From the NCBI GenBank assembly GCA_040326155.1, contig JBEQLE010000030.1:1-44507 (forward strand): 44,507 bases of DNA, written 5' to 3'. The notes under the pieces were generated by a model that was not told the origin of the DNA, made no database searches, and saw only the letters and a program-made list of their open reading frames with translations. The position numbers were made by a program, and so were the translations under genes. Source of the DNA: Leptospirales bacterium (GTDB lineage: Bacteria; Spirochaetota; Leptospiria; Turneriellales; JAOUFE01). Below, piece by piece: positions 15,344-34,030 of this stretch; the first letter of the stretch is position 1, and each line of letters opens with the position of its first letter.

Positions 15344-16117
15344 TTATAATACTTTTTCTGCGGGGACGGGTCGAATCGGAATTCCCTTATCATCTAAATA
15401 CTCTTTTAGTTCACCGATTCCAATTTCGCGAAAATGAAAAATAGACGCCGCCAGAGCCGCTTCAGCGCCTGCTTCGAAAGCTTCGTACATATGCTCTTTT
15501 GTTCCAGCGCCACCAGAAGCAATAACAGGAATACTTACAGCGCTTGAAACACCGCTTGTAAGTTCAAGGTCGAAGCCCTTTTTTGTGCCATCGCGGTTCA
15601 TGCTGGTAAGCAAAATCTCTCCGGCTCCCAGTTTTTCAGCCTCTTTAGCCCACTCAATGGCATTTTTACCGGTCGCGGTTCTTCCACCGTGTAAAAAAAC
15701 CTCATAGAACTCACCGTTAAAACGCGCATCTATGGCACAGACAATACACTGGCTACCAAAATGCTCTGCACCCTCGGTAATCAGCCCAGGGTTCTCAAAA
15801 GCCGCCGTATTAATGGCAACTTTATCAGCTCCCTCACCTAAAATCATCCTCATATCTTCGAGTGTTCGAATTCCACCACCGACCAGATAAGGTATAAAAA
15901 GATGCTCTGAGACCTCTTTTACTAAATTAAGTATAATACTTCTACGATCAGAAGATGCGGTAATGTCCAGAAATACGAGTTCATCGGCCCCTTCATTTTC
16001 ATACGCAACTGCGTTTTCAACCGGATCGCCCGCATCTGTAAGGTTAAGAAACTCAACCCCTTTAACAACCCTTCCGTCTTTAACATCAAGACAGGGTACA
16101 ATACGCTTTGTGTGCAT
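15344..16117 (-). CDS. hisF: Imidazole glycerol phosphate synthase cyclase subunit
   Basis: [60 protein letters not shown]. Confidence 0.98.
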
Positions 16118-16830
16118 TAACGATATTCTCTTCTTCTTCTAGGTTTTAACTCTATCATTTTTGCGTTTGCTGTTTCTGACTCTTCAATTAAATATTTCAC
16201 TGTACGAGCAACATCTTCGGGCATTAATATAAACTCAGAATCACTTTTATCATGCTGGTGGTCTTCTCCGAAATCAGTTAAAACAGAACCGGGGCAAAGT
16301 GCTGTTACAGCAATGCCAAACTCCTTCAAATCTTCACGAAGGGACTCTGTAAACCCGACCACAGCAAACTTCGAAGCCGCGTACGCTGTACCGGTTTTAA
16401 AACCGTTAAGCCCGGCTACGGAGGCAATATTAATAATTTGTCCCTTCTTTTGTGCAATTAAATGAGGAGTTACATGCTTGGTAAATAAAAAAGTTCCGTA
16501 TACATTGACTTTTTGTATTTCCAGGAATTCTTCGGGAGTAAACTCATCCACTCTTTTAAAAGCGCCTATACCGGCGTTGTTAATCAAGACGTCAATTCGT
16601 CCATACCTATCCAATGTTTTTTCAATACACATGGTAACGTTACTCTCAACAGTAACATCACAACGAACAGGAAACGCGTCCCCCCCCTGCTTTTTAATAC
16701 CGGAAGCCAGATTCAATATAGCCGTTTCATTACGAGATGCCAGCACGACTTGGTAATCCAGTAGGGATTCAGCAATTGCTCTGCCAATGCCTCTAGAAGC
16801 GCCTGTTATTATTACGACTTTTTTTTCCAT
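16117..16830 (-). CDS. Short-chain dehydrogenase/reductase
   Basis: [17 protein letters not shown]. The ATG at 16830 is preferred. Confidence 0.93.
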
Positions 16831-16837
16831 ATGGTTC

Positions 16838-16865
16838 AATATACAAAACTATGACAAAGTGTCAA
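16838..16865 (-). promoter_or_regulatory. Sigma70-like promoter for SDR-hisF, probably leaderless
   Basis: Minus strand TTGACA-N16-TATATT; ATG lies 7 nt downstream with no SD. Confidence 0.55.
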
Positions 16866-17898: not shown

Positions 17899-18804
17899 AT
17901 GAGTTATGACGACATGGAATTCAGAAAATTTACATACAAAAGTGAGTTTGATAAGTCAATCCATACTTTAGAAGGAATATTAACGGGAATATCGCTCGAT
18001 AGACAGATAAATGAAGTTGAAGTTTCAGAGTTGCAAATTTGGTTATCTGCTCATTCTGAATTTAATCATAAACAGCCGTTCAAAGAATTAATACCAATTA
18101 TTAGTGAAGCAATTTCAGATAATTATTTAGATGAGGAAGAGAAAAAAAACATTCTTTGGTTTTGCGAAAATTACCATGCAGATAATAAGTTTTACGATTC
18201 AATCACACATGATATTCAAGTTTTACACGGAATATTACATGGCATCATTTCCGATAATATTATTTCAGATGGAGAAGTTATTAATCTGCAGAAATGGTTA
18301 AGTGATAGAGAACATTTATCTGGGTGCTATCCTTATGACGAATTAAATGGTTTGCTGCTTGAAATTTTAAAGGATGGTATAATTGACGATAATGAACGGA
18401 AGGTATTGCAAAAATTTTTTAGTGAATTCGCTTTAATCTTTGTTGATAGCAAAATTAATGTCAGTTTAACTGATACATATGAAACACCAATATCTATATC
18501 TGGCATTTGTGCCGCGGACCCAAATATATATTTTTCTGAAAAAGTCTTTTGTTTTACTGGCAAATCCTCTCGCACTAAGCGAAGTGATTTGATCGATATT
18601 GTGAATAGTTTAGGTGGTGTTTATGTAAACAGTATTTCCAAAAACACTGATTATTTAATCGTGGGCGATGGAGGTAATCCTGCATGGGCATATTCTTGCT
18701 ATGGACGAAAAGTTGAGGAAGCAATGGAGATCAGAAAAAACGGGTCAAAAGTGATTGTAGCACATGAAAATGATTTTTGGGATGCAGTTCAAGACCAGAA
18801 TTAA
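17899..18804 (+). CDS. Tandem TerB-like helical repeats plus C-terminal BRCT domain
   Basis: Four D-x-x-(I/L)-x-x-x-E motifs (DRQINEVE, DNYLDEEE, DNIISDGE, DGIIDDNE); BRCT FCFTG...GG...TDYLIVG...YGRKVEEA...HENDFW; SD GGAGG. Confidence 0.82.
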   Translation: MSYDDMEFRKFTYKSEFDKSIHTLEGILTGISLDRQINEVEVSELQIWLSAHSEFNHKQPFKELIPIISEAISDNYLDEEEKKNILWFCENYHADNKFYDSITHDIQVLHGILHGIISDNIISDGEVINLQKWLSDREHLSGCYPYDELNGLLLEILKDGIIDDNERKVLQKFFSEFALIFVDSKINVSLTDTYETPISISGICAADPNIYFSEKVFCFTGKSSRTKRSDLIDIVNSLGGVYVNSISKNTDYLIVGDGGNPAWAYSCYGRKVEEAMEIRKNGSKVIVAHENDFWDAVQDQN

Positions 18805-18892
18805 TTCTTTAAAAAGCATTGACACCATAAATTTACTATGTCTTTTATGAAACAATTTCCTACATTGGAAAAGTAATAAATGGTGGTAACAC

Positions 18893-21082
18893 ATGGGCTT
18901 TTTTATCTTTCTTTCAGCTATTGTCATAATAATTTTTGTAAAAAGGGCTAAAAAATCTTCAAACCAAAAGAAGAATGTACGAGTTAGATATACAGATGAA
19001 GGCAAAAGTTACCTTTCAGATTCAAGTATTTTCAATACTGGATACTCAAGTTACAAACGGCAAGCCGCAAAAACGACATTTTACGGAGAGTGTACTTCAA
19101 TAAGTGTAAATGGGTTACTATTAGTTAGCCCCTTTGTCTACGTCTCGAGTGATTCACCGCATAAGACATCTGCGCTGCCGCATATTATATTTGAAAAAAG
19201 TAAAATAATACAATCAGATGCGGAAGTACAATTACACTATTGGCCAAGTTACTCAGACATTCAAGGCGAAGCCAGATATCAATTACTAAAATGGTTGTCT
19301 GATGGAAAAAATAGTGCAGACTTGAATATCGGTCTTCTGTTTATTTATTTTTACAATTTAGAATATCGGGCGATTAAAGAGGGAAAAGACCTTCTGCCTA
19401 TTTTGAAAGAACTCATTAGACTCTACAATTTATTCAGTTTTAATGGTTCCTTTTGTGGTTATGCTGGTGCACTAATTGGATATATTATATTTGCATTGCC
19501 CATTGAGGAGGTGACGCCAAATATAAAAAGTACGGTCATGGACATTATTAAGAGTTCAACTAACTATTCAACACTAAAAACATCTGGTATTAATTTTTAC
19601 TTGAACAAGCAAACAGTGCCAACGAAAGAAAACCTTTTAGAATATGTAATTAGCCAGCCGCGGAGTAAGAACTCCGTGATACCAGACAAAGTAGGGCAAA
19701 TATTTAAAGACTATTTTATTGAATTAACTATCAGGAAAATACCTGATATAATGGATAATTTTACATTGCAGAAGTGTGATTTAAATTACCATTGGGCGTC
19801 TTCCGCCGGATACGCCGAAAGAGATAAAATTATCAAAGGGATGAATCCGGTGATGCCCTCAAAACATCGGAACCGATTAATCAAACTATGGGACAAATGC
19901 ATTGAAGATTTCAGGCCATACAGCAGGAAAATTAACAAAGGAACAGAGGTAGAGCTATTTGACCTATTGCCAAGTGATGCTAAAGATATTCTGCCAAATA
20001 AACTTGCAAATAATTTACATAGCTTTTTCAATGACAATAAAAATACGCCGGTTACTATAAGCGATTTTTTAGAAAGCATCAACTCTGAAGAAAAGCTTAC
20101 TTTGAATTTTTCTAAGAGGTTATCAAGAATAGTCAATGATATAGGATATGCAATCGAACCGGATGTTTCACATACAAATAGATCATATAAGACCGACGAT
20201 TTTATAGTTCTTTTTGAAAAGTCCGGGGAACTGAAAAATTCCTCCGATTATTTTACCGCAACATTAATTTTTGATCTGGGGATGATGATATCTCAGGCAG
20301 ACGATGAAATTCATATTAAGGAAGTTGATACCATTGAGAACTTTGTTATTTCAAATTTGTGCAAAAATAATATTGCAAAAAACAGAATTAGCAAAAGGCG
20401 CCTACTGGCAACAACGGGGAAATTAAATTTTTCTGGTGTCGCAAAAAGTATTGCTACCCGACTAAAGCCTAAAGATATTGAACCAATTGCAGAATATTTA
20501 TACTCGGTTGCTGCTGCTGATGGGAAAATATTGTATGCAGAAATTAAGGCAATTCGCAAGATTGTTAAAGGATTCGGCCTATCTCAAAGTTTTATTGATA
20601 CAATTGAAACGAAATTGGGGATAGCTGAACCAATAACTTCTGCGATATTACAAAGTAAATCGGGAGTAAGAAAAAAAGGGAGCGCAATACCCCCGAAACC
20701 AAACATTGCACCAGAAGTTACTGTTAATATCAATGTAAAGAAACTCGAACAATTGAAAATAGAAACGAGCGCAGTTCAAAATACCTTAAAAAATGTATTT
20801 ACAGAAGATGAAGCTGAAGTGGAAGCCATTATAACACAAGAGATAAAACAGGAAGCGGCAAATGATGTTACTGTGTTAGAAACTAAATTCTTACCATTTT
20901 ATAATCATATAATAACAGAAGAAGCCTGGGAGAAACCTGCATTACGTAAAATAGCTTTAGAGCATGGGTTTATGGTAGATGAAGCTATTGAATCTATAAA
21001 CGAATGGTCGGACGAGAACCTGGGTGATTTTCTCGTTGTTGAAAAAGATAAATATCATGTTAGTTTGGAATTGTTAAAATAA
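18893..21082 (+). CDS. TerB_N-TerB-TerB_C membrane-anchored protein
   Basis: N-terminal TM helix; TerB_N motifs LHYWPSYS...RYQLLKWL and IGLLFIYFYNLEYR; TerB motifs QADDEI..KE and AAADGKI..AE; TerB_C motif IESINEWSDENLGD. Confidence 0.87.
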   Translation: MGFFIFLSAIVIIIFVKRAKKSSNQKKNVRVRYTDEGKSYLSDSSIFNTGYSSYKRQAAKTTFYGECTSISVNGLLLVSPFVYVSSDSPHKTSALPHIIFEKSKIIQSDAEVQLHYWPSYSDIQGEARYQLLKWLSDGKNSADLNIGLLFIYFYNLEYRAIKEGKDLLPILKELIRLYNLFSFNGSFCGYAGALIGYIIFALPIEEVTPNIKSTVMDIIKSSTNYSTLKTSGINFYLNKQTVPTKENLLEYVISQPRSKNSVIPDKVGQIFKDYFIELTIRKIPDIMDNFTLQKCDLNYHWASSAGYAERDKIIKGMNPVMPSKHRNRLIKLWDKCIEDFRPYSRKINKGTEVELFDLLPSDAKDILPNKLANNLHSFFNDNKNTPVTISDFLESINSEEKLTLNFSKRLSRIVNDIGYAIEPDVSHTNRSYKTDDFIVLFEKSGELKNSSDYFTATLIFDLGMMISQADDEIHIKEVDTIENFVISNLCKNNIAKNRISKRRLLATTGKLNFSGVAKSIATRLKPKDIEPIAEYLYSVAAADGKILYAEIKAIRKIVKGFGLSQSFIDTIETKLGIAEPITSAILQSKSGVRKKGSAIPPKPNIAPEVTVNINVKKLEQLKIETSAVQNTLKNVFTEDEAEVEAIITQEIKQEAANDVTVLETKFLPFYNHIITEEAWEKPALRKIALEHGFMVDEAIESINEWSDENLGDFLVVEKDKYHVSLELLK

Positions 21083-21092
21083 AGGAGTAAAC

Positions 21093-22364
21093 ATGTCTAA
21101 ATTGAAAGAGAGAGAGCGTACGGCAATAATCAACTCGTTAAGATCAGGAGTTGTCCCACGAATTGGTCTCCATCATATTCAGGTTGGAAGAAATGATGAA
21201 GTGTCTGAAATTATAAAAGACATAGAAAAATTGTCAAAGCAATCGTCCAGTATTCGTTTAATTATTGGCGATTACGGATCAGGAAAATCATTTTTTCTTA
21301 ATTTATCAAATACAATTGCACATACATACAATGCGATTACAAGTATAGCTGATATCTCAATGGAAAAAACTTTATACTCTCGGGACGGGAAAGCCAGGGC
21401 ATTATACACGGAAATTATTAAAGGTTTATCGACAAAGTCCAGACCTGACGGCAATGCATTGCGAACTATAATTGATTCATGGATTTCGAAAACGATTGGT
21501 ATTGAAGAAGATGTTCCTAAAGAAAAAATATACAAAGAATTAGCCCACCTTAGAGAGCTGGTTTCTGGTTACGATTTTAGCGATATTATTTGCCAGTATT
21601 ATGATGGATATATTAATGACGATGAAATATTATGTGAAAACTGTCTTCGATGGTTACGCGGCGAGTATGCAACCAAGACGGATGCCAAAAAAGATTTACC
21701 CGTTACTGGCATAGTAGATGATCGAAACTATTATGATTATTTGAAAATTATTGCAGAATTTGTCAGGATGGCCGGTTACTCAGGGCTTGTTATTTGTATA
21801 GACGAATTGGCTGTTTTAACCAGATTGCAAAGCAATGTTCGTGCAAAAAATTATGAAACTATTCTCAAGATGCTAAATGATATTTTGCAAGGCAATGTGA
21901 ATGGAATTAGTTTGGTTTTAAGCGGAACACCTGAATTTTTGAAAGATAAAAGAAAGGGATTATATAGTTATGGAGCTCTGGAGTCTCGTTTAAGTTCTAA
22001 CTCTTTTTCACGCGGAGAATTTAAAGATCTGTCAGGCCCTGTAATCGAACTTGATAATCTCTCACAAGAGGAATTATTTCTTGTATTTGGGAATATTCGC
22101 AATGTATTTGCATACCATGATACTGCTAAGCACTTAATAGATGATAAAGGAATTGTCATCTTTATGGAGAAACTGTTCAGCCGAATGGGCGCCGCAAGCT
22201 ACCTATCGCCGCGTGAAGCCATTAAGGATTTTGTTCACGTATTGAATCTTGCCGAGTCACATCCAGACAAAGGGTGGGAGTTCTTTTTAACAGAAGCAAA
22301 CAGCGATGCTTTGGAACAGACCACGCAGGCCGGCACGAACGACCTGAACAGTTTCAAGCTTTAA
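21093..22364 (+). CDS. DUF2791 / BrxD-like P-loop ATPase
   Basis: IINSLRSGVVPRIGL..IQVGR, Walker A GDYGSGKS, RWLRGE, Walker B VICIDE, GLYSYGALESRL. Confidence 0.9.
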   Translation: MSKLKERERTAIINSLRSGVVPRIGLHHIQVGRNDEVSEIIKDIEKLSKQSSSIRLIIGDYGSGKSFFLNLSNTIAHTYNAITSIADISMEKTLYSRDGKARALYTEIIKGLSTKSRPDGNALRTIIDSWISKTIGIEEDVPKEKIYKELAHLRELVSGYDFSDIICQYYDGYINDDEILCENCLRWLRGEYATKTDAKKDLPVTGIVDDRNYYDYLKIIAEFVRMAGYSGLVICIDELAVLTRLQSNVRAKNYETILKMLNDILQGNVNGISLVLSGTPEFLKDKRKGLYSYGALESRLSSNSFSRGEFKDLSGPVIELDNLSQEELFLVFGNIRNVFAYHDTAKHLIDDKGIVIFMEKLFSRMGAASYLSPREAIKDFVHVLNLAESHPDKGWEFFLTEANSDALEQTTQAGTNDLNSFKL

Positions 22365-22368
22365 GAAA

Positions 22369-24489
22369 ATGGATACATTTTCCAAACTTCATGAGGGAGT
22401 TCAAAAAGCAATTTGGAGATTAAATTGGGAGAATTTTAGACCCATACAGGATAAAGCGATCGATTGCATAATTAATTCCAATAATGATTTGATTATCTCC
22501 TCGCCAACAGCGAGTGGCAAAACGGAGGCCGCTTTCTTACCTGCAATTTCGGAAACTGCAAATGAGCTGCACGAAAGTGTTTGTATTCTGTATGTATCAC
22601 CATTGAAAGCGTTGATAAATGACCAGTTTGATAGAGTGGAAAATTTATGCTCCGAATTACAGATAACCGTTACAAAATGGCACGGCGACGCATCCAATAC
22701 TGCGAAACGCAAAATAACCAAGAATCCTAAAGGAATTATACTTATCACCCCGGAGTCGATAGAAGCTCTACTGATACGCAAATCAAATGAAACGAGAAAT
22801 ATATTCAAAAATCTCAAATTTATTATAATTGATGAATTGCATTCTTTTTTAGCGAAAGAAAGAGGTGATCAGCTCCGTTCGCAGATTGAAAGAATTAAAA
22901 ACATAATACCAACAACACCAAGAATAATAGGTTTATCTGCTACAATTGGCGATGAATTAAATGCAAAATTGTGGATTCAAGATAATCCAAATAGTGTTGA
23001 ATTTATAAAGGAAAATCAAGATGGCTTACGTAAAGAAAAACACGGTTCGGTGCATTGCTTTGATCAGTACGACCAAGATATTATAAACTATCAAAAATAT
23101 TTATATGAAGAAACCAGAATTGGTGTCAATTTGATCTTTGCGAACTCAAAAAAGATTTTAGAAAAGCAGTGTTCGAATCTGAAACAGATTGCAAAACTTA
23201 GAAACCATTCAGATAATTATTCTATTCACCATGGTTCTCTCTCGAAAGAAATTCGTGAAGATGTTGAGGAAAACCTGAAGGATACAAAAATTAGAAACAT
23301 TTCTGTATTTTGTACAAATACGCTGGAGCTGGGGATTGATATAGGTAATATAGATAAGGTATTCTTAATTGAACCTATAAATTCAGTATCATCGTTTATT
23401 CAGAGAATTGGACGAAGCGGAAGATTGGATGATATGCCAATTAATTTTAGTTTTTTGATTTATATTGAAAAGCTTGAAAGCAATAGTCTTGAATATGATA
23501 AAGTTAGATTAGATATTATAAAATGTATCGCAATAACATTGCTGATGCTGGAAGAATGGTGTGAACCGAATCCGCCATCATTAAGGGAACCCTCTGTGCT
23601 TGCTCACCAATTGCTTTCACATATTGCGCAATACGGAGAAGCCAAAACATCTAATACCTATGATTTAATAGTCGATAATTCATTTAGGAAATATCTGAAT
23701 ATTGAAGAATTTAAGGAATTATTGATTTTCTTAAACGATCAAGATTATATTTATCAAGATACAGAAATGAACTTACGTTTGTCTTCTAAGGGCGAGGTAT
23801 TAACAGAGCATTACGAGTTTTATGCAGTTTTTAGCAGTCCGGATGAATGGCGTGTATTATATACCGGCAAAGAAATTGGGAAAATACCAATTCTTGCAAG
23901 CTATCAAATTGACGATAAGATACTTTTAGCGGGAAGAATGTGGAAAATTATTGATATTCAAGAAGAGGTCAAGTCGATTTTGGTTTTACCTGCTGGCGGA
24001 GGCAAGCCTGCTTCATTTGGCAATGTTTCCTTCGAAATTCATAAAAAGGTACACGAAAAAATGGTCGAGATATTGAATTCAGAGGACATCCCGGTTTTTT
24101 TGACTGAGAATAGTGTCAATGCCTTAGCAGAAGGTCGATTGAATTTTAATAATATGAAACAAGAACTAGGTACATTTTTTTCCGTTTTTCAGGGTTCCAG
24201 AATTCAGTCTACATTAGCATTATTTTTTAAAAGAATAAAGATTATCTCAGAATCACAAGAAGCCTTTTTTATTTTGAAAAAGATTACCAAGGAGGAAGCT
24301 ATAAAGAAAATGAAAATACAATCTGAAAAACTTTCCACGTTAGCAGATTATATTTTGAATGAGGTTCGATATAAGGATAAACTTATGTATAAATATGATT
24401 ATCTTTTGCCAAATAGTATTCTTTCTCGAGCGTACGTAGACAGGTTTTTGGATATAGAGGGTGCATTATCATTTTTGAAAAATTTGTGA
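22369..24489 (+). CDS. Lhr-like DEAD/DEAH-box helicase (BrxHI-like)
   Basis: PTASGKTEAA, SPLKALINDQ, TPES, DELH, SAT, HHGSLS, TLELGIDIG, QRIGRSGR. Confidence 0.92.
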   Translation: MDTFSKLHEGVQKAIWRLNWENFRPIQDKAIDCIINSNNDLIISSPTASGKTEAAFLPAISETANELHESVCILYVSPLKALINDQFDRVENLCSELQITVTKWHGDASNTAKRKITKNPKGIILITPESIEALLIRKSNETRNIFKNLKFIIIDELHSFLAKERGDQLRSQIERIKNIIPTTPRIIGLSATIGDELNAKLWIQDNPNSVEFIKENQDGLRKEKHGSVHCFDQYDQDIINYQKYLYEETRIGVNLIFANSKKILEKQCSNLKQIAKLRNHSDNYSIHHGSLSKEIREDVEENLKDTKIRNISVFCTNTLELGIDIGNIDKVFLIEPINSVSSFIQRIGRSGRLDDMPINFSFLIYIEKLESNSLEYDKVRLDIIKCIAITLLMLEEWCEPNPPSLREPSVLAHQLLSHIAQYGEAKTSNTYDLIVDNSFRKYLNIEEFKELLIFLNDQDYIYQDTEMNLRLSSKGEVLTEHYEFYAVFSSPDEWRVLYTGKEIGKIPILASYQIDDKILLAGRMWKIIDIQEEVKSILVLPAGGGKPASFGNVSFEIHKKVHEKMVEILNSEDIPVFLTENSVNALAEGRLNFNNMKQELGTFFSVFQGSRIQSTLALFFKRIKIISESQEAFFILKKITKEEAIKKMKIQSEKLSTLADYILNEVRYKDKLMYKYDYLLPNSILSRAYVDRFLDIEGALSFLKNL

Positions 24490-24631
24490 TCCAAGAAGTT
24501 TTGTTGAATAAAACGATTTCTATCACTACTACAAACACAACTCGAACGAAGCAACTTCGCCGGGCTCCCGTGCCAAAAGCCGTAGGATTTTTTTGTGCAA
24601 TAAATATGAAATATTTGCCGAAAAAGTTAGT

Positions 24632-25372
24632 ATGATCATTCAAACCGGTATTTCCGACTATTCAAGTCAAAAATTACGGTGGGCTCAATACGCAGCAAAT
24701 TCGCAGAGTGAAAATAATACCGATTCCACATCAGAAAAAGTCAAAACTACGAATATGCAGGTAGATAAGGCTGATATTTCCGTACACGGAAGAATGAAAG
24801 CCAGACTAATGAGTCTTCGGGAAGTGCGCAATAATATTAAAAGTGGAATCGAAATGCTGGAAACTGCTGACAAAGGCGTAAGGACAATTCTGACCATTCT
24901 CGAGAAAATCAAGGACCTGGCGGTGCAATCCATAAACGGTATTTACTCTAAAGATCACCGTCAACTGATTCAAGTCCAGGTTTCAGAGCTCATTGACGAA
25001 GTAGACCGAATTGTAGAGAGTACCGAATATAACTCAAAAACATTATTAGATGGAGATTACTCTCGACACTCGCGTAAAGCTTCCATGTGGATGCAAATAG
25101 GTCCGAATATGCATGAACGAGAGCGAATTTTCATAAGTACAATGAGCGCTCTAAACCTCCGCCTCTCGAATGTGAAGGGAGAAATAGCAAGTGTCTCTAC
25201 CCCGAAATCAGCACAAGAGACTCTCGATACGCTGGAGTATTCGTTATACCGCGTAAAGAAACAGTTGGCCGATATTGAAGGGTACAACGAACGGTTTAAA
25301 GAAACTCAAATAAAAGTAAACGCCGAGATCGAGTTGCTCGAAAAAAACCTCGGTGAAACAGAAAAACGGTAA
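24632..25372 (+). CDS. Flagellin (FlaB)-derived protein lacking canonical D0 termini
   Basis: D1 motifs LAVQSINGIYS..RQLIQVQVSELIDEVDRI, ASMWMQIGPN..ERERI and QLADIEGYNERF; no LSSGxRIN and no RIRDADxA...QAN. The ATG at 24632 is preferred. Confidence 0.85.
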   Translation: MIIQTGISDYSSQKLRWAQYAANSQSENNTDSTSEKVKTTNMQVDKADISVHGRMKARLMSLREVRNNIKSGIEMLETADKGVRTILTILEKIKDLAVQSINGIYSKDHRQLIQVQVSELIDEVDRIVESTEYNSKTLLDGDYSRHSRKASMWMQIGPNMHERERIFISTMSALNLRLSNVKGEIASVSTPKSAQETLDTLEYSLYRVKKQLADIEGYNERFKETQIKVNAEIELLEKNLGETEKR

Positions 25373-25376
25373 AACT

Positions 25377-26171
25377 ATGATCATTCAAACCAATATAGAC
25401 AGAATCAATCAAAATAAAATAAATCTGGCGGCAAACCATACGGAAAACAAAAGCCGAGTAAATGGCAATGTAGTTAATACAAACTCAACCAATAAAATTG
25501 TGACCGATGCGACCAAGCCGACCGATAAAAGCGAAATTTCCGTTCGCGGCAAAATGACGACTCGTCTAATGAGCCTGCGCCAGGCAAGACAAAATGTAAC
25601 CTACGGAATGAATTTACTAGAAACAGCCGATCTCGCTCTAAAATCTATGCAAAGAATATTGCAAAAAATACGAGTGCTTGCAGTTAAGTCGTCCAACGGA
25701 ACATATACCGAAACGGACAGACAAGGTTTTCAAGTTCAGGTTTCCCAATTGATTGATGAAATCGACCGCATTTCCTCACAAAGTGAATTTAATTCTATGA
25801 AACTGCTTCAGGGTGATTTAGCGCGCGGTTCAAGATTAGCTTCCATGTGGATACAAATGGGCCCCAATATGCACGAGCGCGAAAGAGTTTTCCTGTCGAC
25901 TATGACCGCCGGAGCTTTGCGGATGAGAAGTTATAACGGTGGTATTCTCACAATATCTACGGCAGGTTTAGCGAATGATGCAATTGGAGTAATTGATGAT
26001 GCGCTTGAAAGGGTATATCAAACACGGGGCGATGTCAAAGGGTATACGATCAGGTTCGAAGAGGCCATAGAAAAAACTGATGACGAAATAGAATTACTCG
26101 AGAAATCTTTAGAAGCTGAGTTCGAAGAACCGGACATAGAGAAAGAGCTGAAAAAGAATAAACAAAGATAA
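25377..26171 (+). CDS. Flagellin (FlaB)-derived protein lacking canonical D0 termini
   Basis: LRQARQN..GMNLLETA, IRVLAVKSSNGTY..DRQ..QVQVSQLIDEIDRISSQSEFN, ARGSRLASMWIQMGPN; a charged tail replaces the C-terminal D0. Confidence 0.87.
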   Translation: MIIQTNIDRINQNKINLAANHTENKSRVNGNVVNTNSTNKIVTDATKPTDKSEISVRGKMTTRLMSLRQARQNVTYGMNLLETADLALKSMQRILQKIRVLAVKSSNGTYTETDRQGFQVQVSQLIDEIDRISSQSEFNSMKLLQGDLARGSRLASMWIQMGPNMHERERVFLSTMTAGALRMRSYNGGILTISTAGLANDAIGVIDDALERVYQTRGDVKGYTIRFEEAIEKTDDEIELLEKSLEAEFEEPDIEKELKKNKQR

Positions 26172-26177
26172 TTTTAA

Positions 26178-26798
26178 ATGAAGATGAAAACAACGATATT
26201 ATTAATCCTGGTTTTTACCCAGCTCGACTACGTTTCATCGCTAACATTGAGCACTCAAAACGGTGTAGACAACGGCAAAAAAATAACTATAAACAACTCT
26301 GACAAAATGACCGAGCTGTTAAAATATGTCGAACAAAACCTTGTGGTATTATATGAAATCTTACAAAGAAACAGAGTCCTTGCAGTAAAGGCGGCAAATG
26401 GAATATACACGCCACGCCAGAGAGGGAATTTTAACCAGTCGTTCCAGGAGATGTTCAAAGAGGCGGCGCGTACAATACGAAGGGCAAAATATAATAATTA
26501 TCCATTGCTTGAGTTCACAAACCAAAAATGGGCAGCGCACCTCGTATTAAAACTCGATAGAAAGGATGAACCGGTTGTCTATTCACTTCCCAGAATCTAC
26601 TCCCAAAACTACGGGTACGATAGCTGGTCTCACAACGAAAAAATAGGATGGCCAAATGTAAAAACCACCTGGGAGGCAAGCGCAGCTCTGGGCGATATTG
26701 ATAAAGCATTGGGACAGCTTGATAGCGAACTTACCCTCGTCAGGGCGGTTATACAACGGTTAAACATAGCTAAAAAAGTAGACCATAAAATTAAGTAA
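26178..26798 (+). CDS. Divergent flagellin-D1-like protein with signal-peptide-like N-terminus
   Basis: MKMKTTILLILVF...; ILQRNRVLAVKAANGIYT..QR; AKYNNYPLL; ALGDIDKALGQL...QRL. Confidence 0.72.
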   Translation: MKMKTTILLILVFTQLDYVSSLTLSTQNGVDNGKKITINNSDKMTELLKYVEQNLVVLYEILQRNRVLAVKAANGIYTPRQRGNFNQSFQEMFKEAARTIRRAKYNNYPLLEFTNQKWAAHLVLKLDRKDEPVVYSLPRIYSQNYGYDSWSHNEKIGWPNVKTTWEASAALGDIDKALGQLDSELTLVRAVIQRLNIAKKVDHKIK

Positions 26799-26803
26799 CG
26801 CCA

Positions 26804-27916
26804 TTATTTTTGTTCAGGCATGAGCCTCGCATTTCCTGTATCAATATAATAATTATAATCAAAATTGTCCGAAGAGAAACTTTTCGGGTCCGCGCCCGTT
26901 ATCAGATCGTTATTTACATATACATGCTTTTTATCTTTGGCAAAACTAAAATCAACATCTATTAAAATAATTTCAAAAGTTTCCGGGTCAGCTTTATCAA
27001 TTTTCATCTCATTCTTTGGATGTGCACAATCTGTATATAAGTAATACACTCCGTCGCTATCTTTCGCATAAAAAAAGTTAAAAGGGTAAAAACTCATTAT
27101 ATTATAATCTGTCTTTTTTCCGGAGCAATAAATATAATGTTTATCTTTTCCATAATTATATTTTACAACCGAAAATGAATTCGGATGCGCTCCAGAAATG
27201 ACATCAGCTCCATAGAACACTCTTAAACTGTCTTTTGCATAATCGGACTGTGCATCTAAAATTTGAAAATCTGCAGTATTTGCGTAATAAATTTTCCTGC
27301 CTCTATAAAATACAGATGTATTGTCCCTGGCAAAATTCGTAGATTGAGTGAACAAAGAAAAACTATCGGGGTCGGCGTCGTCTATTTGTAAACCATGATA
27401 ATATACATTGCGTTTATCGAAAGCGTACTCATTTGAATTTTCAGCAACTTGAAAAGTTTGCAGGTCGGCCAATTTAAAATCATTTTCCCATTCATAATAG
27501 TAATACACCCGATTTTTATCTTTTGCATAATCATCATTTAAAGCGATAAAACTCTCCAGGTCGGGACCATCAAAACTCTTTCTCCCTCGATAAATAGCCT
27601 TTTTATCGCGAGCAAATAAAGTCCGGTTTAAAACGTAAAAAGATTCGGCATGGGCCCCGGGTAGATCGTACCCCAGAAAATAAACTCCGTTTTCATCTTT
27701 TGAATATCCAGAATAGAGGACAATAAAAGAGTCATAGTCAGATTTTTTCATATGGTTAAGTCCGTGCTCATCTGCGGCATAAATAAAAGCGTCATCTTTA
27801 TAATAATTATAACCCAGAAATGTTTTACCTTCAATTATTGGTATCGTATCCGGCTTATGACATATTGATATAAACAGCGTAAGACAGATTACTGTATACT
27901 TCGAAAAATTCAACAC
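26804..27916 (-). CDS. DKNYY-family repeat protein, probably exported or lipoprotein
   Basis: Repeated YAKDKNRVYY / ADPxSF units; hydrophobic N-terminus with Cys. Confidence 0.88.
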   Translation of the reverse strand: MLNFSKYTVICLTLFISICHKPDTIPIIEGKTFLGYNYYKDDAFIYAADEHGLNHMKKSDYDSFIVLYSGYSKDENGVYFLGYDLPGAHAESFYVLNRTLFARDKKAIYRGRKSFDGPDLESFIALNDDYAKDKNRVYYYYEWENDFKLADLQTFQVAENSNEYAFDKRNVYYHGLQIDDADPDSFSLFTQSTNFARDNTSVFYRGRKIYYANTADFQILDAQSDYAKDSLRVFYGADVISGAHPNSFSVVKYNYGKDKHYIYCSGKKTDYNIMSFYPFNFFYAKDSDGVYYLYTDCAHPKNEMKIDKADPETFEIILIDVDFSFAKDKKHVYVNNDLITGADPKSFSSDNFDYNYYIDTGNARLMPEQK

Positions 27917-29566: not shown

Positions 29567-32500
29567 ATGTGGAACAATAAAAACAATATAAGGACTTTAT
29601 ACGCTATAGTTGCAACAATTTTCATGTTTATCGGTTGTAACCAGGCAGTCCAGGTAGACGATTCTTTAGAAAGCAGCGCCGCTGAGCCATTTATTTTAGC
29701 GACCGTACCTATGGACGGCTATGCACTGCAATTTCATAACGCCGGTGCGATGGTTGCCTTTAACAAAGACATGGTTGCGCTCGATTTAACCGACCCGACA
29801 CTGGGCAATGTCCTGGTACAAGATATTACCGACCCGGCCAACCCCGTTCCTGTTATCGCAGATTTTTCTTATTCCGATCTGGGTAAAGCACTTATTATAC
29901 AACCGGTTATACCAACCGGGGGTGGCAAACCCGTAAATTTGAACGGATCGACATTTTCTGTAACGTTGCTTGCGGGTAACTCTACAAATGGCATACGCGC
30001 CCTCGACGGAACGAATCTGCAAAACGATTATACTTTTACATATACCTATCTGGCGTACAACACTGTTGACGCACGTAGCCAGGACAAAATTGCTCCTATG
30101 GTTACATTTAAGTATCCCGTGCCAGCTTCGGTGGGCATAAGTACCGAAACTGCCATAACGATTACTTTTAATGAACCTGTAAACCCCGCTTTACTTAGCG
30201 GTTCTTCTTTAATCATTACGGACGACCCTGTAAACGGAACGCCTGTCAGTGGAGTCTTGAGATATGTGGTTCCAGCGAACACACTTATGTTTTTTCCCAC
30301 CCAGAAAATGAAAAATAATACTGTATATACAGCCACCCTTGTGCCGGGTATACGAGACCTGACAGATGCGCTGCAAAACGCAACCGCTACAGAAGTAAGC
30401 TGGACTTTTACTACCGAGAAAGATAAAATTCCACCGAGCGTACTGGCAACCACACCTGCTGATGGAAGTATTGGAGTGGGCACAAACGCTGCGGTAAGTA
30501 TCACGATGTCCGAATTAATTAATCCGGTGACGTTAAACAATACTTCTATTACTGTTGTTGACGCTGCTCAAGTGCAGGTTGCGGGAATTTATTCCTTCGA
30601 TGCAAACTCGAATACGATAAATTTTTCACCATCTGCAAATTTGGCCACCAACATGGACTTTACTGTAAATGTTACAGCCGGGTTAATGGATATGGCTGGC
30701 AACGCGGCAACCCCGTATGCATTCACCTTTACCAGCGGCGCGGGAATAGACTCCATTGCACCAACGGTGTCAGCGACGTCACCTTTAGACACTGCAACTT
30801 CCGTCAGTTTAAACGCAAGCATTTCTATTCAGTTCAGCGAAGCTATGGACCCTTCCACCATTACTTTATTTGACGGTATATCGGGTTCGGTCTCCGTATT
30901 GGACGGTGTTGGAACGCCGGCTTTGGGAAATCTCTATTACGATGGACCCAGTAACAGTGCCATATTTATACCTTCGGCGGATTATAATGCTTTAAGTGCA
31001 TACCAGATTACCGTCACAAGCGGAGCAGCCGGAGTGAAAGATTTATCGGGGAATTCCCTGGTTGCCGATTATATCGTAAGTTTTACGACCGGTAACCAAA
31101 GCGATAAAACAGCTCCTTTGGTAATTGTAACCTCGCCTGTTCACGGGACAACAAATATGTTGCCGGACACACCGATTTCGGTCTCGTTTAACGAGCCTCT
31201 GAATGCATCCACGATCAACAACCAGACGTTCGTTGTCTCTGATGGTGCAACCGACTTGGCAGGAACTGTTTCCTATATTTATAACGCAGCTTCGGCAATA
31301 AACACAGCGACATTCACTTTACAAACGGGGGTTGTCTTAGACCCCGCAAAAATTTATACGGCGCGGCTAAGCACCTTAATTAAAGACCTGGCTGGTAATC
31401 CTCTTACAACCGACTACCATTGGTCCTTTACCGTAAAATCTACCCAGGGAAGTTCCCTAATTTCATCGATTTTCCCCGCAAATGGGAGCCTGGCTGTACC
31501 GGTTACATTAGGCGAAATTCAGGTTACTTTTACAAATAGCTTGAGTCCTCTGAGTCAGGGTATGCTTTCATCGTACATTTCTGCAACTGTAAATAATTTA
31601 ACTACGGGCGCCGTAACAAGTTTAACGCCAACGTCCGTAACGTATGACTCCCTGACTAAAAAGGCGATTATTACACTGCCGCCTTTAGCAGGTAATAGTA
31701 TTCATACCTTTAATTTGGCCGGTACAATTACCGACATTTACGGAACCACATCACCGACCGATTACTCCTGGTCGATGATTACAGAGAAGGTGTATTATCC
31801 TGTTTCCGTTACAGCCACCGGCGTAAGTGGAACCGGTTTAATATTGCAAAACAACGGTGGCGATAATCTTGCTATTAATGCCAATAGTACGTTTGTTTTT
31901 GCAACCAGTGTTTTAGATAATACCACATACAATGTAACTTTGGCTTCAAACCCGACTATGCCTTATCAAGAATGTTCCCTAACCAACGCGAGTGGAACTA
32001 TAAACGCAGCAGGTGTCTCCAATGTCGCAGTAAACTGTGTAACGAAACCGATCTGCCCCACACAAGCCAATATCGTAAAAACACCAGGGGTCGACTGGAC
32101 AATGCGAACTCCACCAACTGCAGCTATTACCGGAACCGGTTCTTGTCTCGTCGCTGTGGGCGATTGGGGAAAAGTTGTCAGTTCCCCCGATGGAGTAAAC
32201 TGGGAGACGCAAAAAACAGGACTAAACGACCATTTTGCCGATATTACCTGGGGTGGTACAAAATTTGTAGCCGTAGGTGCCATGGGCGCTGTAGTTACTG
32301 TAGAAGATGGTGAAACCTGGGTAAAACAAAACAGCGGGCTGCCCACAAACATACATTTGCAATCCATCGCCTGGACAGGCAACCTCTTTGTAGCTGTAGG
32401 GTCAGCAGGAACTATTATTACATCACCTGATGGCATAAACTGGACAACACAAAATTCCGGTACCACCAGCGAATTAACATCAGTAAAAGCTTTCTCTAAT

Positions 32501-34030
32501 ATTATCGCCGCAGTAGGTGGTAGTAACATACTGTATTCCATAGACGGCGTTAACTGGCAGGTTGTGAACATGGGCTTAAGTACAACATTAAAAGATGTAG
32601 CATGGTCAGGCAGTGAATACATGGCGCTCGATGCTTCTGGCTATATTTATAGTTCACCTGACGGGATGAGCTGGAGCCTGGTATCCGTGCTCTCAACAAG
32701 TTATGGCGGAACCCCTGTATCGAATGACGGTAGACTTATTGTCAAAGCAATAGAGCAGGCTCTAGTATATTATTCAAAAATAGAGTGGGACGGGAATCAA
32801 TTTATCGTTCTTAGCAAAGCGCACGGATTAGAATATTTCCTTACTACTGCTACCGGGTATATATTTACTTCCACGGATGGAGCTTCCTGGGCTGTAAAAG
32901 CTTTACCTACAAGTACGGCGCCTTCTGATATTTACATCGACAATAGCAAAACTTACCTGAGCGATTGGTATGGCAACATGCTTGTTTCCTATAATAATGC
33001 GGTAGACTGGGGTTATGCGATGGAGTCATTTGAATACAGTGATCTAAAGTTAGTAGAATGGGCAGATGGCAATGGTTTGAACTGGTTAAACGGGGAGTAT
33101 TGGATGGTAACGGACCGCAGGATGCCTGTACTGGATCCGAATACGGGGGGAACTTTGTATGTGAACTCCGGAATTCTTCTACGATCTGTAGATGGTATCC
33201 ACTGGCATAAACAAGTTTTTACGCCACCCATTGCTTCGAATCCTTTTGCTTTTCAAGAGCAATACTATTTCCGAACAATGAGATATTTTAATGGGCAATA
33301 TATTGTGACCGGTTCTATATACCAAAATGGATTTACACGAGCAATGACCATGGTCTCTTTTGATGGAACAACCTGGAGCGCCCCTACTGCAATTAATAAT
33401 GTAGCAGCTTTTTACGATATAGACCACAGTTCAGCAGAGTTGGTCGCCGTAGGTGTGGATGCCACCAATCACTTGCCTTACTTTTATACTTCTGCTAATG
33501 GGGTAACGTGGAAACAATCCATTACCCGGCAAATTCCCGGAACGAATCTCTTCAGCGTATCTTGTTCCAAGATCAATTTAGGCACAGATTGTGTTGCCGT
33601 TGGAAGAGGCGGGGCTATTTTCTGGCTGACCGGCGGAGTTGGCGATGGCATAAGTGTGGGAGCTGAAACAATGACCGATGTAGTCTGGAGTAACTCAAAC
33701 ATTGTCGTTGTCGGGGCGAACGGAACTGTTTACGAATCTACGGATATGCAAAACTGGACTGGCGTGGTGCTGTCTCCGAATCCATATAGTAGCGATGGAG
33801 GTACTTACTTTGAGTCTATTACATGGGACGGAGCAAACTTTATTGCAGTCGGTTACCAGACAATTCAAACCTCGAAAGATGGAATCTCCTGGCAATACCA
33901 AAATCACGTAATGGGAACCTGGCAATACGAAGCATTTTTAACGGTTGGTGCAAAACCCGCATTGTCTAAAGGAGAGGCATCGCAGTATGTAATATTCGAT
34001 TACAATATGCGTTTATTTACTTCGCCGTAA
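29567..34030 (+). CDS. Large surface lipoprotein: six SbsA/Big_5 Ig-like domains, one Cys-paired repeat, beta-propeller region
   Basis: Lipobox FIG-C; repeated D..AP.V....P...I.FxEP...DLxGN; many SxDGxxW (Asp-box-like) motifs in the C-terminal half; SD GAGGTGGAG. Confidence 0.88.
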   Translation: MWNNKNNIRTLYAIVATIFMFIGCNQAVQVDDSLESSAAEPFILATVPMDGYALQFHNAGAMVAFNKDMVALDLTDPTLGNVLVQDITDPANPVPVIADFSYSDLGKALIIQPVIPTGGGKPVNLNGSTFSVTLLAGNSTNGIRALDGTNLQNDYTFTYTYLAYNTVDARSQDKIAPMVTFKYPVPASVGISTETAITITFNEPVNPALLSGSSLIITDDPVNGTPVSGVLRYVVPANTLMFFPTQKMKNNTVYTATLVPGIRDLTDALQNATATEVSWTFTTEKDKIPPSVLATTPADGSIGVGTNAAVSITMSELINPVTLNNTSITVVDAAQVQVAGIYSFDANSNTINFSPSANLATNMDFTVNVTAGLMDMAGNAATPYAFTFTSGAGIDSIAPTVSATSPLDTATSVSLNASISIQFSEAMDPSTITLFDGISGSVSVLDGVGTPALGNLYYDGPSNSAIFIPSADYNALSAYQITVTSGAAGVKDLSGNSLVADYIVSFTTGNQSDKTAPLVIVTSPVHGTTNMLPDTPISVSFNEPLNASTINNQTFVVSDGATDLAGTVSYIYNAASAINTATFTLQTGVVLDPAKIYTARLSTLIKDLAGNPLTTDYHWSFTVKSTQGSSLISSIFPANGSLAVPVTLGEIQVTFTNSLSPLSQGMLSSYISATVNNLTTGAVTSLTPTSVTYDSLTKKAIITLPPLAGNSIHTFNLAGTITDIYGTTSPTDYSWSMITEKVYYPVSVTATGVSGTGLILQNNGGDNLAINANSTFVFATSVLDNTTYNVTLASNPTMPYQECSLTNASGTINAAGVSNVAVNCVTKPICPTQANIVKTPGVDWTMRTPPTAAITGTGSCLVAVGDWGKVVSSPDGVNWETQKTGLNDHFADITWGGTKFVAVGAMGAVVTVEDGETWVKQNSGLPTNIHLQSIAWTGNLFVAVGSAGTIITSPDGINWTTQNSGTTSELTSVKAFSNIIAAVGGSNILYSIDGVNWQVVNMGLSTTLKDVAWSGSEYMALDASGYIYSSPDGMSWSLVSVLSTSYGGTPVSNDGRLIVKAIEQALVYYSKIEWDGNQFIVLSKAHGLEYFLTTATGYIFTSTDGASWAVKALPTSTAPSDIYIDNSKTYLSDWYGNMLVSYNNAVDWGYAMESFEYSDLKLVEWADGNGLNWLNGEYWMVTDRRMPVLDPNTGGTLYVNSGILLRSVDGIHWHKQVFTPPIASNPFAFQEQYYFRTMRYFNGQYIVTGSIYQNGFTRAMTMVSFDGTTWSAPTAINNVAAFYDIDHSSAELVAVGVDATNHLPYFYTSANGVTWKQSITRQIPGTNLFSVSCSKINLGTDCVAVGRGGAIFWLTGGVGDGISVGAETMTDVVWSNSNIVVVGANGTVYESTDMQNWTGVVLSPNPYSSDGGTYFESITWDGANFIAVGYQTIQTSKDGISWQYQNHVMGTWQYEAFLTVGAKPALSKGEASQYVIFDYNMRLFTSP

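Follow-up and report, generated by a model that had tools for sequence, protein, structure and literature searches.

Three FlaB-derived genes without the D0 signatures of flagellin form an operon in a Leptospirales bacterium

Introduction

Flagellin is among the most thoroughly studied proteins of bacteria. Its D0 termini are regarded as indispensable for its role, and the locus described here raises the question of what flagellin derivatives without them could be, and could do, in a spirochaete, whose flagella are located in the periplasm. The window, that is the whole stretch of DNA analysed (44,507 nucleotides, contig JBEQLE010000030.1 of the Leptospirales bacterium assembly GCA_040326155.1), contains an operon of three such genes, designated g1, g2 and g3. 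A preliminary description had seen in them intact flagellin derivatives devoid of D0 and had suggested that they are filament modifiers or caps, regulatory sinks, or decoys for flagellin receptors. The analysis demonstrates domain loss, selection, a single family, a recurrent pairing with an exported partner and the loss of the asparagine on which FliW binding depends. The three genes belong to an old branch of FlaB, the core flagellin of spirochaetes, that selection has maintained. As to their role, we favour tentatively, and with somewhat less than even confidence, a periplasmic, non-polymerising flagellin-mimic complex of g1-g3 acting on FlaB or its filament.

Results and Discussion

Domain content and ends of the three proteins

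The genes and the parts of them discussed below are the following.

24632-25372, + strand: g1, 246 aa, D0-less FlaB paralogue (open reading frame (ORF) call, Pfam, alignment), made up of flagellin-like first five residues, a diverged polar stretch of ~45 aa, a complete D1 and a short tail replacing the C-terminal D0
25377-26171, + strand: g2, 264 aa, D0-less FlaB paralogue with a conserved acidic/lysine-rich C-terminal tail
25377-25526, + strand: N-terminal region of g2, residues 1-50, a putative vestigial N-terminal D0 (ND0) with conserved M-I-I-Q-T-N followed by a predicted-disordered N/T/S/K-rich stretch
26178-26798, + strand: g3, 206 aa, putatively Sec-exported half-D1 derivative (ORF call, Pfam, alignment)
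26178-26240, + strand: probable signal peptide of g3, ~residues 1-21; as read from the translation, it begins with basic residues, continues into a hydrophobic core ~10 residues long and ends in small residues ahead of the probable cleavage site

The three genes are co-oriented and separated by 4 bp (g1/g2) and 6 bp (g2/g3), and all reading frames are intact, so that the coordinates and frames agree with the compact arrangement described earlier. The Pfam scan returned partial Flagellin_N matches for g1 (9.3e-17, profile positions 42-137 of 139), for g2 (1.1e-16, positions 39-136 of 139) and, just above the cut-off (27.1 bits, cut-off 26.6), for g3 (4.8e-6, positions 62-135). Flagellin_C was matched in none of the three at E up to 1. 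The source genome (4.26 Mb, 171 contigs, 94.7% complete) holds eight Flagellin_N and five Flagellin_C matches, none of these five on the operon contig, and it also encodes four full-length FlaB proteins, one flagellin end fragment and FlgL. When g1, g2 and g3 are aligned with the genome's own FlaBs, neither LSSGxRINxAxDD nor SRIRDxDMA...AQAN is found in any of them, the motifs of D1 persist, and the C-termini stop ~35-50 residues early. The best scores against the NCBIfam flagellin models were 71, 80 and 35 bits for g1, g2 and g3, and the curated cut-offs of at least 332 were not reached. Placement in a known family such as FlgL (HAP3), which the preliminary description had named as a reason to abandon its view, was considered and rejected, the TIGR02550 scores being 27.5, 36.8 and 24.6 bits against a cut-off of 127.2. 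FlgL shares with g1-g3 the flagellin superfamily, the D1 helical bundle and weak profile matches, but it keeps its D0 termini, and the FlgL of the source genome lies on contig C100, adjoining a FliW-like gene. None of the three proteins matched any family among the PADLOC anti-phage models.

The earlier statement that the D0 segments are missing requires a distinction. Both motifs are indeed absent; the N-terminal region of g1 and g2, however, is diverged and not deleted. It comprises ~50 aa that are colinear with FlaB, of low complexity and rich in N, T, S and K, the NCBIfam flagellin profiles align that of g2 from profile position 1-6 on, and the start M-I-I-Q-T of g1 and g2 resembles the FlaB start M-I-I-N-H-N. 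In g1 and g2 only the C-terminal D0 is truly removed, with a short charged tail in its place; the tail of g2 is nearly identical in its orthologue. The identical first 15 nt of g1 and g2, ATGATCATTCAAACC, which had been taken as a mark of duplication, are present as described. Since the codons of a relative differ at synonymous sites of the M-[IV]-I-Q-T start, the shared nucleotides reflect the conserved peptide M-[IV]-I-Q-T and not a nucleic-acid signal.

The AlphaFold2 (AF2) model of g2 has a predicted local distance difference test (pLDDT) score >85 over residues ~55-245 and <50 over residues 1-9 and 20-50. It displays the elements of the D1 fold, namely ND1a, ND1b, beta-hairpin and CD1, and its top Foldseek matches are Leptospira FlaB proteins; the best match in the PDB is Leptospira FlaB1 6pwb (query 49-242 against chain 34-227). 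The same fold is assigned to g1 through its 46-47% identity to g2 and the alignment. The best-kept residues are exactly those of the flagellin subunit-contact/TLR5 site and the hairpin. Compared with FlaB (Leptospira FlaB1 6pwb; L. biflexa core filament 9lrz/9ls0), the D1 fold and sequence are common, with 44-51% identity over D1, as are the spirochaete-specific hairpin and loop motifs and the flagellin-like extreme N-terminus. The differences lie in the lack of the C-terminal D0 and the N-terminal D0 motif in g1-g3, in a separate tree group, in the absence of the FliW-dependent asparagine from the D0-less proteins, and in g3, which adds a signal peptide and keeps only half of D1.

Origin, selection and distribution

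A scan of metagenome loci yielded one locus, the contig L024, on which the g1-g2-g3 order is kept and the spacing of g1 and g2 is also 4 nt; synteny in a relative, which had been proposed as a check, is thus found. The ratio of non-synonymous to synonymous substitution rates (dN/dS, Nei-Gojobori) was 0.146 for the g1 orthologue in L024 (62% identity, 244 codons), 0.133 for the g2 orthologue (72% identity, 258 codons) and 0.190 for g3 against its relative (136 codons), values that are rough because dS of 1.2-1.9 is near saturation. The orthologue identities (62% and 72%) exceed the identity between g1 and g2, and the duplication therefore predates the split of the two organisms. That g1-g3 are decaying, functionless flagellin paralogues is hardly credible. 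Such a view could call on the lack of a Shine-Dalgarno sequence and of a recognisable promoter, and on a Leptospira copy of a g3-like gene, in genome G059, that is interrupted by stops. It is opposed by the intact frames and the low dN/dS (0.13-0.19 across this rough range of dS), by the conserved operon order and spacing, and by the age of the family, which is monophyletic and present in many lineages. The preliminary claim of intact D0-less flagellin derivatives under selection, forming one ancient group, is therefore upheld.

The tree was built on D1 only (g2 residues 52-236) from 51 author-chosen rows, comprising 23 D0-less proteins, 20 FlaB-like proteins and 8 other short flagellins; the D0-less rows were taken from a word-indexed g2 search, a profile search and the loci of genomes G194, G395 and G018. 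All 23 D0-less rows fall on one side of a branch (ultrafast bootstrap (UFboot) 82, Shimodaira-Hasegawa-like approximate likelihood ratio test (SH-aLRT) 99) that was recovered in 79% of 200 bootstrap trees and is nested among the spirochaete FlaBs. The tree with canonical FlaBs that had been suggested thus places the D0-less proteins in one group, apart from the full-length FlaBs. The word-indexed g2 search gave 25 proteins, five with Flagellin_N only (g1, g2, P0002, P0003 and P0010, the last recorded as 'MAG: flagellin [Spirochaetia bacterium]') and 20 FlaBs of ~281 aa. Among the 1.84 billion representatives covered by the profile search were 24,410 flagellin relatives, and the best 150 of these 24,410 comprised 18 clusters (50% identity) of 235-264 aa, with both D0 signatures absent. 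The ESM Atlas returned generic flagellin clusters only.

A second FlaB-derived group without the D0 signatures was also noticed, consisting of P0075, P0077, 11 more clusters (335-362 aa) and P0097 (293 aa). The P0075-type proteins start with MK[IL]xxNP and each show two stretches matched to the D0-less profile; in the two sequences that were read, a hairpin-like segment precedes the second D1.

The D0-less family is rare and patchy. Among 34 genomes of the window's order, the source genome (G000) alone stood above the FlaB score plateau; G018, of the same order, has a solo, more diverged D0-less gene (244 aa, L051:3699-4433) close to cluster P0065. In a phylum sample of 401 genomes the broad profile placed three above the plateau (G000, G194 and G395), and the narrow profile at E up to 1e-85 found one of the 401; the plateau counts are a lower bound, as more diverged members could hide within the plateau. 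A short flagellin ORF on G002:C157 was rejected as a D0-less gene, the ORF being cut by the contig end. In genus g107, which belongs to another spirochaete family and has a much higher G+C, both sampled genomes (G194 and G395) carry a D0-less gene of 258-260 aa followed ~75 nt on by a g3-like gene of 201 aa with a signal peptide. The pairing of a D0-less protein with an exported half-D1 protein therefore recurs over a large phylogenetic distance.

A patchy distribution could also be expected of proteins that left the flagellum for the periplasm or envelope, where the stable helical bundle of D1 would serve in binding or as a scaffold. The structural matches include homologues of flagellin with no part in motility (3k8v, 3k8w and 2zbi, 'bacterial cell-surface flagellin'), and flagellar genes adjoin none of the inspected loci. 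These Sphingomonas cell-surface homologues are a precedent for the use of the flagellin fold outside filaments, but they contain an inserted outer domain and are distant, with ~21% identity in the fold alignment; presumably, they have full termini. The best-kept residues, on the other hand, are those of the subunit-contact/TLR5 site and the hairpin, which indicates a flagellin-type partner, and the flagellin-like N-terminus is conserved as a peptide. A non-flagellar recruitment is, on this evidence, rather unlikely.

The g3 protein and its Leptospira relatives

To judge from its sequence, g3 differs in kind from g1 and g2, having a signal peptide and half of D1. The alignment shows that ND1a survives in its C-terminal half, that ND1b and the hairpin region are kept, and that CD1 is shortened; what remains corresponds roughly to the half of D1 that is distal to D0. 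The earlier description of g3 as a flagellin that had lost D0 is thus correct as far as D0 is concerned, but incomplete, since the first half of ND1a and the end of CD1 are absent too. The closest relatives are the metagenome proteins P0027 (60% identity) and P0028 (55%), and a similar signal peptide is present in both of them as well as in both g107 g3-like proteins. g3 shows the features that mark the g3-like family, that is an export signal, a start in the middle of ND1a, a shortened CD1 and a length of ~200-230 aa.

More distant relatives are Leptospira ORFs of 207-233 aa. A scan of genome contigs with the g3 profile gave two loci, both from Leptospira. In the first search a g3-like ORF was found in 5/14 genomes of Leptospira genus code g19 (five ORFs of 214-233 aa, 5e-23 to 1e-18), and in the phylum sample an intact one was found in 6/19 g19 genomes, along with one stop-broken copy; within the sampled genomes all full-length g3-like matches in Leptospira belong to g19. 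The broken copy (L044, G059:C3:254453-254818) is interrupted by TGA and TAA stops, which indicates that the g3-like gene can be lost within Leptospira. The members of 207-227 aa have 24-30% BLASTP identity to g3 across 77-96% of its length. They are named by NCBI 'endoflagellar protein' or 'flagellin N-terminal helical domain-containing protein' (e.g. AAS71498.1 of L. interrogans), and these names occur in 12/16 profile matches, from the species interrogans, kirschneri, noguchii, weilii, alexanderi, mayottensis, alstonii and santarosai, which we take to be pathogenic. The 'endoflagellar protein' has the same truncated D1 layout as g3 and an N-terminal export signal, but its signal ends in a cysteine-containing, lipobox-like sequence and its gene stands alone in the two flanks inspected. 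No functional study of the Leptospira g3-like protein was found in the literature.

The occurrence of these relatives in Leptospira bears on the proposal of a decoy or antagonist role for g1-g3 towards the flagellin receptors of a host, for instance TLR5. In favour of it, the D1 contact site is conserved in g1, g2 and g3, full-length g3-like matches occur in g19 Leptospira, and the named relatives come from species taken to be pathogenic. The source genome and its closest relatives, however, represent uncultured metagenome lineages that show no sign of a host, and the proteins would be periplasmic at best. We regard a decoy function as very improbable.

Predicted complex of g2 and g3

A single complex prediction was made, with g2 residues 48-264 (21-row alignment) and g3 residues 23-206 (14-row alignment), and it predicts that g3 binds g2. 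The interface score (ipSAE) was 0.72 (0.74, 0.72 and 0.70 in the separate runs) and that of the best of three controls was 0.00; each partner had a pLDDT of at least 82, and at least 93% of the contacts were common to the runs. In the calibration of the tool the mark was reached by 116/157 solved complexes and by 2/215 mismatched pairs, self-made alignments such as those used here lying outside that calibration. The predicted interface joins g2 residues 52-80 (lower ND1a), 138-141 and 156-168 (hairpin) to g3 residues 59-81 and 164-189, and its g3 side consists of the LQRxRVLAV site and CD1. The D1 site recognised by TLR5 is reported, in the cited part of the source, to be crucial for subunit interaction in the flagellum (PMC5578693). 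As the LQRxRVLAV site of g3 corresponds to that D1 patch, a protofilament-type, end-to-end contact between D1 domains is suggested.

Loss of the FliW-dependent asparagine

In the cited part of a study of flagellin regulation, FliW binding relies on an asparagine that is conserved (N237 in T. pallidum, N255 in B. subtilis, N287 in B. burgdorferi), and FliS binds the C-terminal D0 in other bacteria, whereas Borrelia FliS and FliW still co-precipitate FlaB that lacks either D0 half (PMC12327847). Among the aligned rows, the FliW-dependent column is N in 28/28 full-length flagellins but in only 1/23 D0-less rows, and it is L in g1 and g2. The column was mapped through its distance from the C-terminus, 49 residues, which is the same for the three asparagines of T. 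pallidum, B. subtilis and B. burgdorferi. The asparagine of the YxNRLE motif, which is not the FliW-dependent residue, is N in 19/20 FlaB rows and 5/23 D0-less rows. The loss of the FliW-dependent asparagine indicates that the D0-less family has left the FliW checkpoint, and the idea of a regulatory sink put forward in the preliminary description is thereby weakened. Because Borrelia FliS binds FlaB without a D0 half, a D0-less protein could still be chaperoned, and a FliS-assisted export of the D0-less proteins is conceivable by analogy.

The same findings allow g1 and g2 to be viewed as cytoplasmic regulators that compete with FlaB for FliS, for FliW/CsrA or for the export gate. A D1-only protein could bind, given the behaviour of Borrelia FlaB without either D0 half (PMC12327847, cited part), and g1 and g2 are devoid of a Sec signal. 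The replacement of the FliW-dependent asparagine (L in g1 and g2, N in one of the 23 D0-less rows against all 28 full-length ones) argues against this view, as do the close packing of the operon, the repeated association with a Sec-exported partner and the contact predicted between g2 and g3, which speak for a shared compartment. Such a regulatory role is distinctly unlikely. An ORF of 153 aa that follows FlgL on contig C100 of the source genome (L005:2742-3203) is a putative FliW by sequence; if it is FliW, the FliW-CsrA checkpoint is probably present in this organism.

Proposed role in the periplasm

With the C-terminal D0 helix and the N-terminal D0 motif lost, the inner tube of a filament cannot form, and the periplasmic complex that we favour would be non-polymerising. 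In this reading g1 and g2, given their flagellin-like N-terminus and disordered polar stretch, would be exported into the periplasm by the flagellar type III apparatus, and g3 would reach it via Sec, as its signal suggests. g3 is predicted to dock onto g2, where its conserved 'LQRxRVLAV' face and its CD1 helix would meet the beta-hairpin and the lower part of the ND1a helix, possibly in an end-to-end D1-D1 contact such as occurs along a protofilament. The module may then cover the surfaces through which D1 of FlaB makes contact, on monomers or at the ends of filaments, and the assembly of periplasmic flagellin would be modulated, capped or buffered.

Several observations weigh against this reading. 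The pairing is not obligatory, as no g3-like ORF is present in the 8-kb G018 locus and no D0-less gene was found by ORF inspection in two flanks of Leptospira g3-like genes. Flagellar genes are found near none of the inspected loci (the window, L024, L046/L045 and L051). In g1 and g2, the sequence of the region matching the mapped Salmonella export signal (residues 26-47) is not conserved. All three genes lack a Shine-Dalgarno sequence, whereas the FlaB genes of the genome have AGGAG-type sites, and a sigma-70 scan was at chance (7 sites against 8.2 expected). The AF2 model of g3 alone has a pLDDT of 47.9 (8 aligned rows) and is too poor for a fold search, so that the layout of g3 rests on sequence alignment. 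The g2-g3 score may echo the model's memory of solved filament contacts, and thus reflect likeness and not binding; the identity of the predicted interface with the protofilament-type D1-D1 contact is one that we infer. Finally, the cited part of a cryo-electron microscopy report on the Leptospira filament names 11 sheath proteins and FlaB1-4, with no flagellin-like extra (PMC13518957).

The last point applies also to the possibility that g1-g3 are structural accessories, sheath-like or surface components placed outside the FlaB core, which would not act on monomers or ends. The passages cited from that report and a preprint describe many lineage-specific sheath proteins, a composition that varies with species and one uninterpreted density (PMC13518957 and preprint). 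g1 and g2 strongly preserve the loop and hairpin motifs of the FlaB outer surface, g3 and its relatives carry periplasmic export signals, and the Leptospira relatives bear the NCBI name 'endoflagellar protein'. That name, however, is an annotation and not a test, no linkage to flagellar genes is seen, and rarity (3/401 genomes above the plateau) would be odd for a core structural part. Moreover, no flagellin-like sheath component is named in the cited part of the report, whose supplementary data 3 counts FlaB1-4 only (PMC13518957). An accessory of this kind is a doubtful explanation, though one to be reckoned with.

A further version of the periplasmic reading supposes that the D0-less flagellins, exported through the type III apparatus, would be caught by a Sec-exported half-D1 'receiver', lipid-anchored in pathogenic Leptospira, and would form with it a short, capped, D1-only pseudo-protofilament. 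The receiver would present the protofilament/TLR5 face without the opposite face, and where it occurs alone, as in pathogenic Leptospira, it would bind free FlaB monomers or filament ends directly, thereby controlling the homeostasis of periplasmic flagellin. We consider this version unlikely. If it were true, spirochaetes would have a second, filament-independent use of the flagellin D1 contact, and the receiver would possibly set the amount of flagellin available to host sensors.

The fold and superfamily of g1-g3 are known, while domain loss, a secreted half-domain partner and recurrent pairing were not found described in the literature searches, which agrees with the preliminary statement that no system of this form is known. 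No natural D0-less flagellin paralogues were found there, the papers on flagellins 'lacking the D0' dealing with engineered truncations. The D0-deleted flagellins of TLR5 studies have the same domain content as g1 and g2, but they are laboratory constructs, whereas g1 and g2 are natural conserved genes. A natural, conserved and apparently ancient family in which D0 and the FliW checkpoint residue have been given up, and which is paired with a secreted half-domain protein, would be a new flagellin-derived class. It could serve as a natural means of studying the D1-D1 contact apart from polymerisation, and it is also a candidate regulator or accessory of the poorly understood periplasmic flagellum, and it draws attention to an unstudied, lipoprotein-like gene with a flagellin domain that, within the sampled genomes, occurs only in the Leptospira group holding the named pathogenic species.

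Genomic context and expression signals

The features next to the operon are the following.

17899-18804: BRCT-domain gene, upstream of the Shango genes
18893-21082: SngA (PADLOC 3.8e-40)
21093-22364: SngB (PADLOC 2.4e-142)
22369-24489: SngC (PADLOC 4.2e-200)
24614-24625, + strand: motif TTTGCCGA[A/G]AAA, 7-18 nt upstream of the g1 start and kept in the relative (two sequences compared)

A complete Shango anti-phage system thus stands directly upstream of the operon (17899-24489 with the BRCT gene), and a link between these defence genes and the operon was considered and rejected. The block has a G+C of 0.32-0.36 against 0.40-0.42 in the flanks. L024 lacks it at the corresponding position, and there hisF and an SDR gene immediately precede the operon; in the window these two genes are found at 15344-16839, with the low-G+C block between them and the operon. 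The absence from L024 and the low G+C indicate an insertion unrelated to the operon, and the BRCT-Shango block resembles a defence island acquired by insertion. In L024, a 60-aa ORF without a Pfam match (L024:1498-1680) is located between the SDR gene and g1.

The TTTGCCGA[A/G]AAA motif resembles the -10 element of sigma-28 promoters. A search with a sigma-28-type consensus pattern gave a single imperfect hit ahead of g1, its spacer being 12 nt long; neither g1 of the relative nor any of the four FlaB genes is preceded by such a hit. Downstream, a DKNYY-family gene on the minus strand (26804-27916) converges on g3, and as the two stop codons are 5 bp apart, there is no room for a terminator between them. 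Farther along, positions 29567-34030 of the window encode a secreted-looking protein of 1487 aa with five Big_5 Ig-like repeats and a long, repetitive C-terminal region that has no Pfam match.

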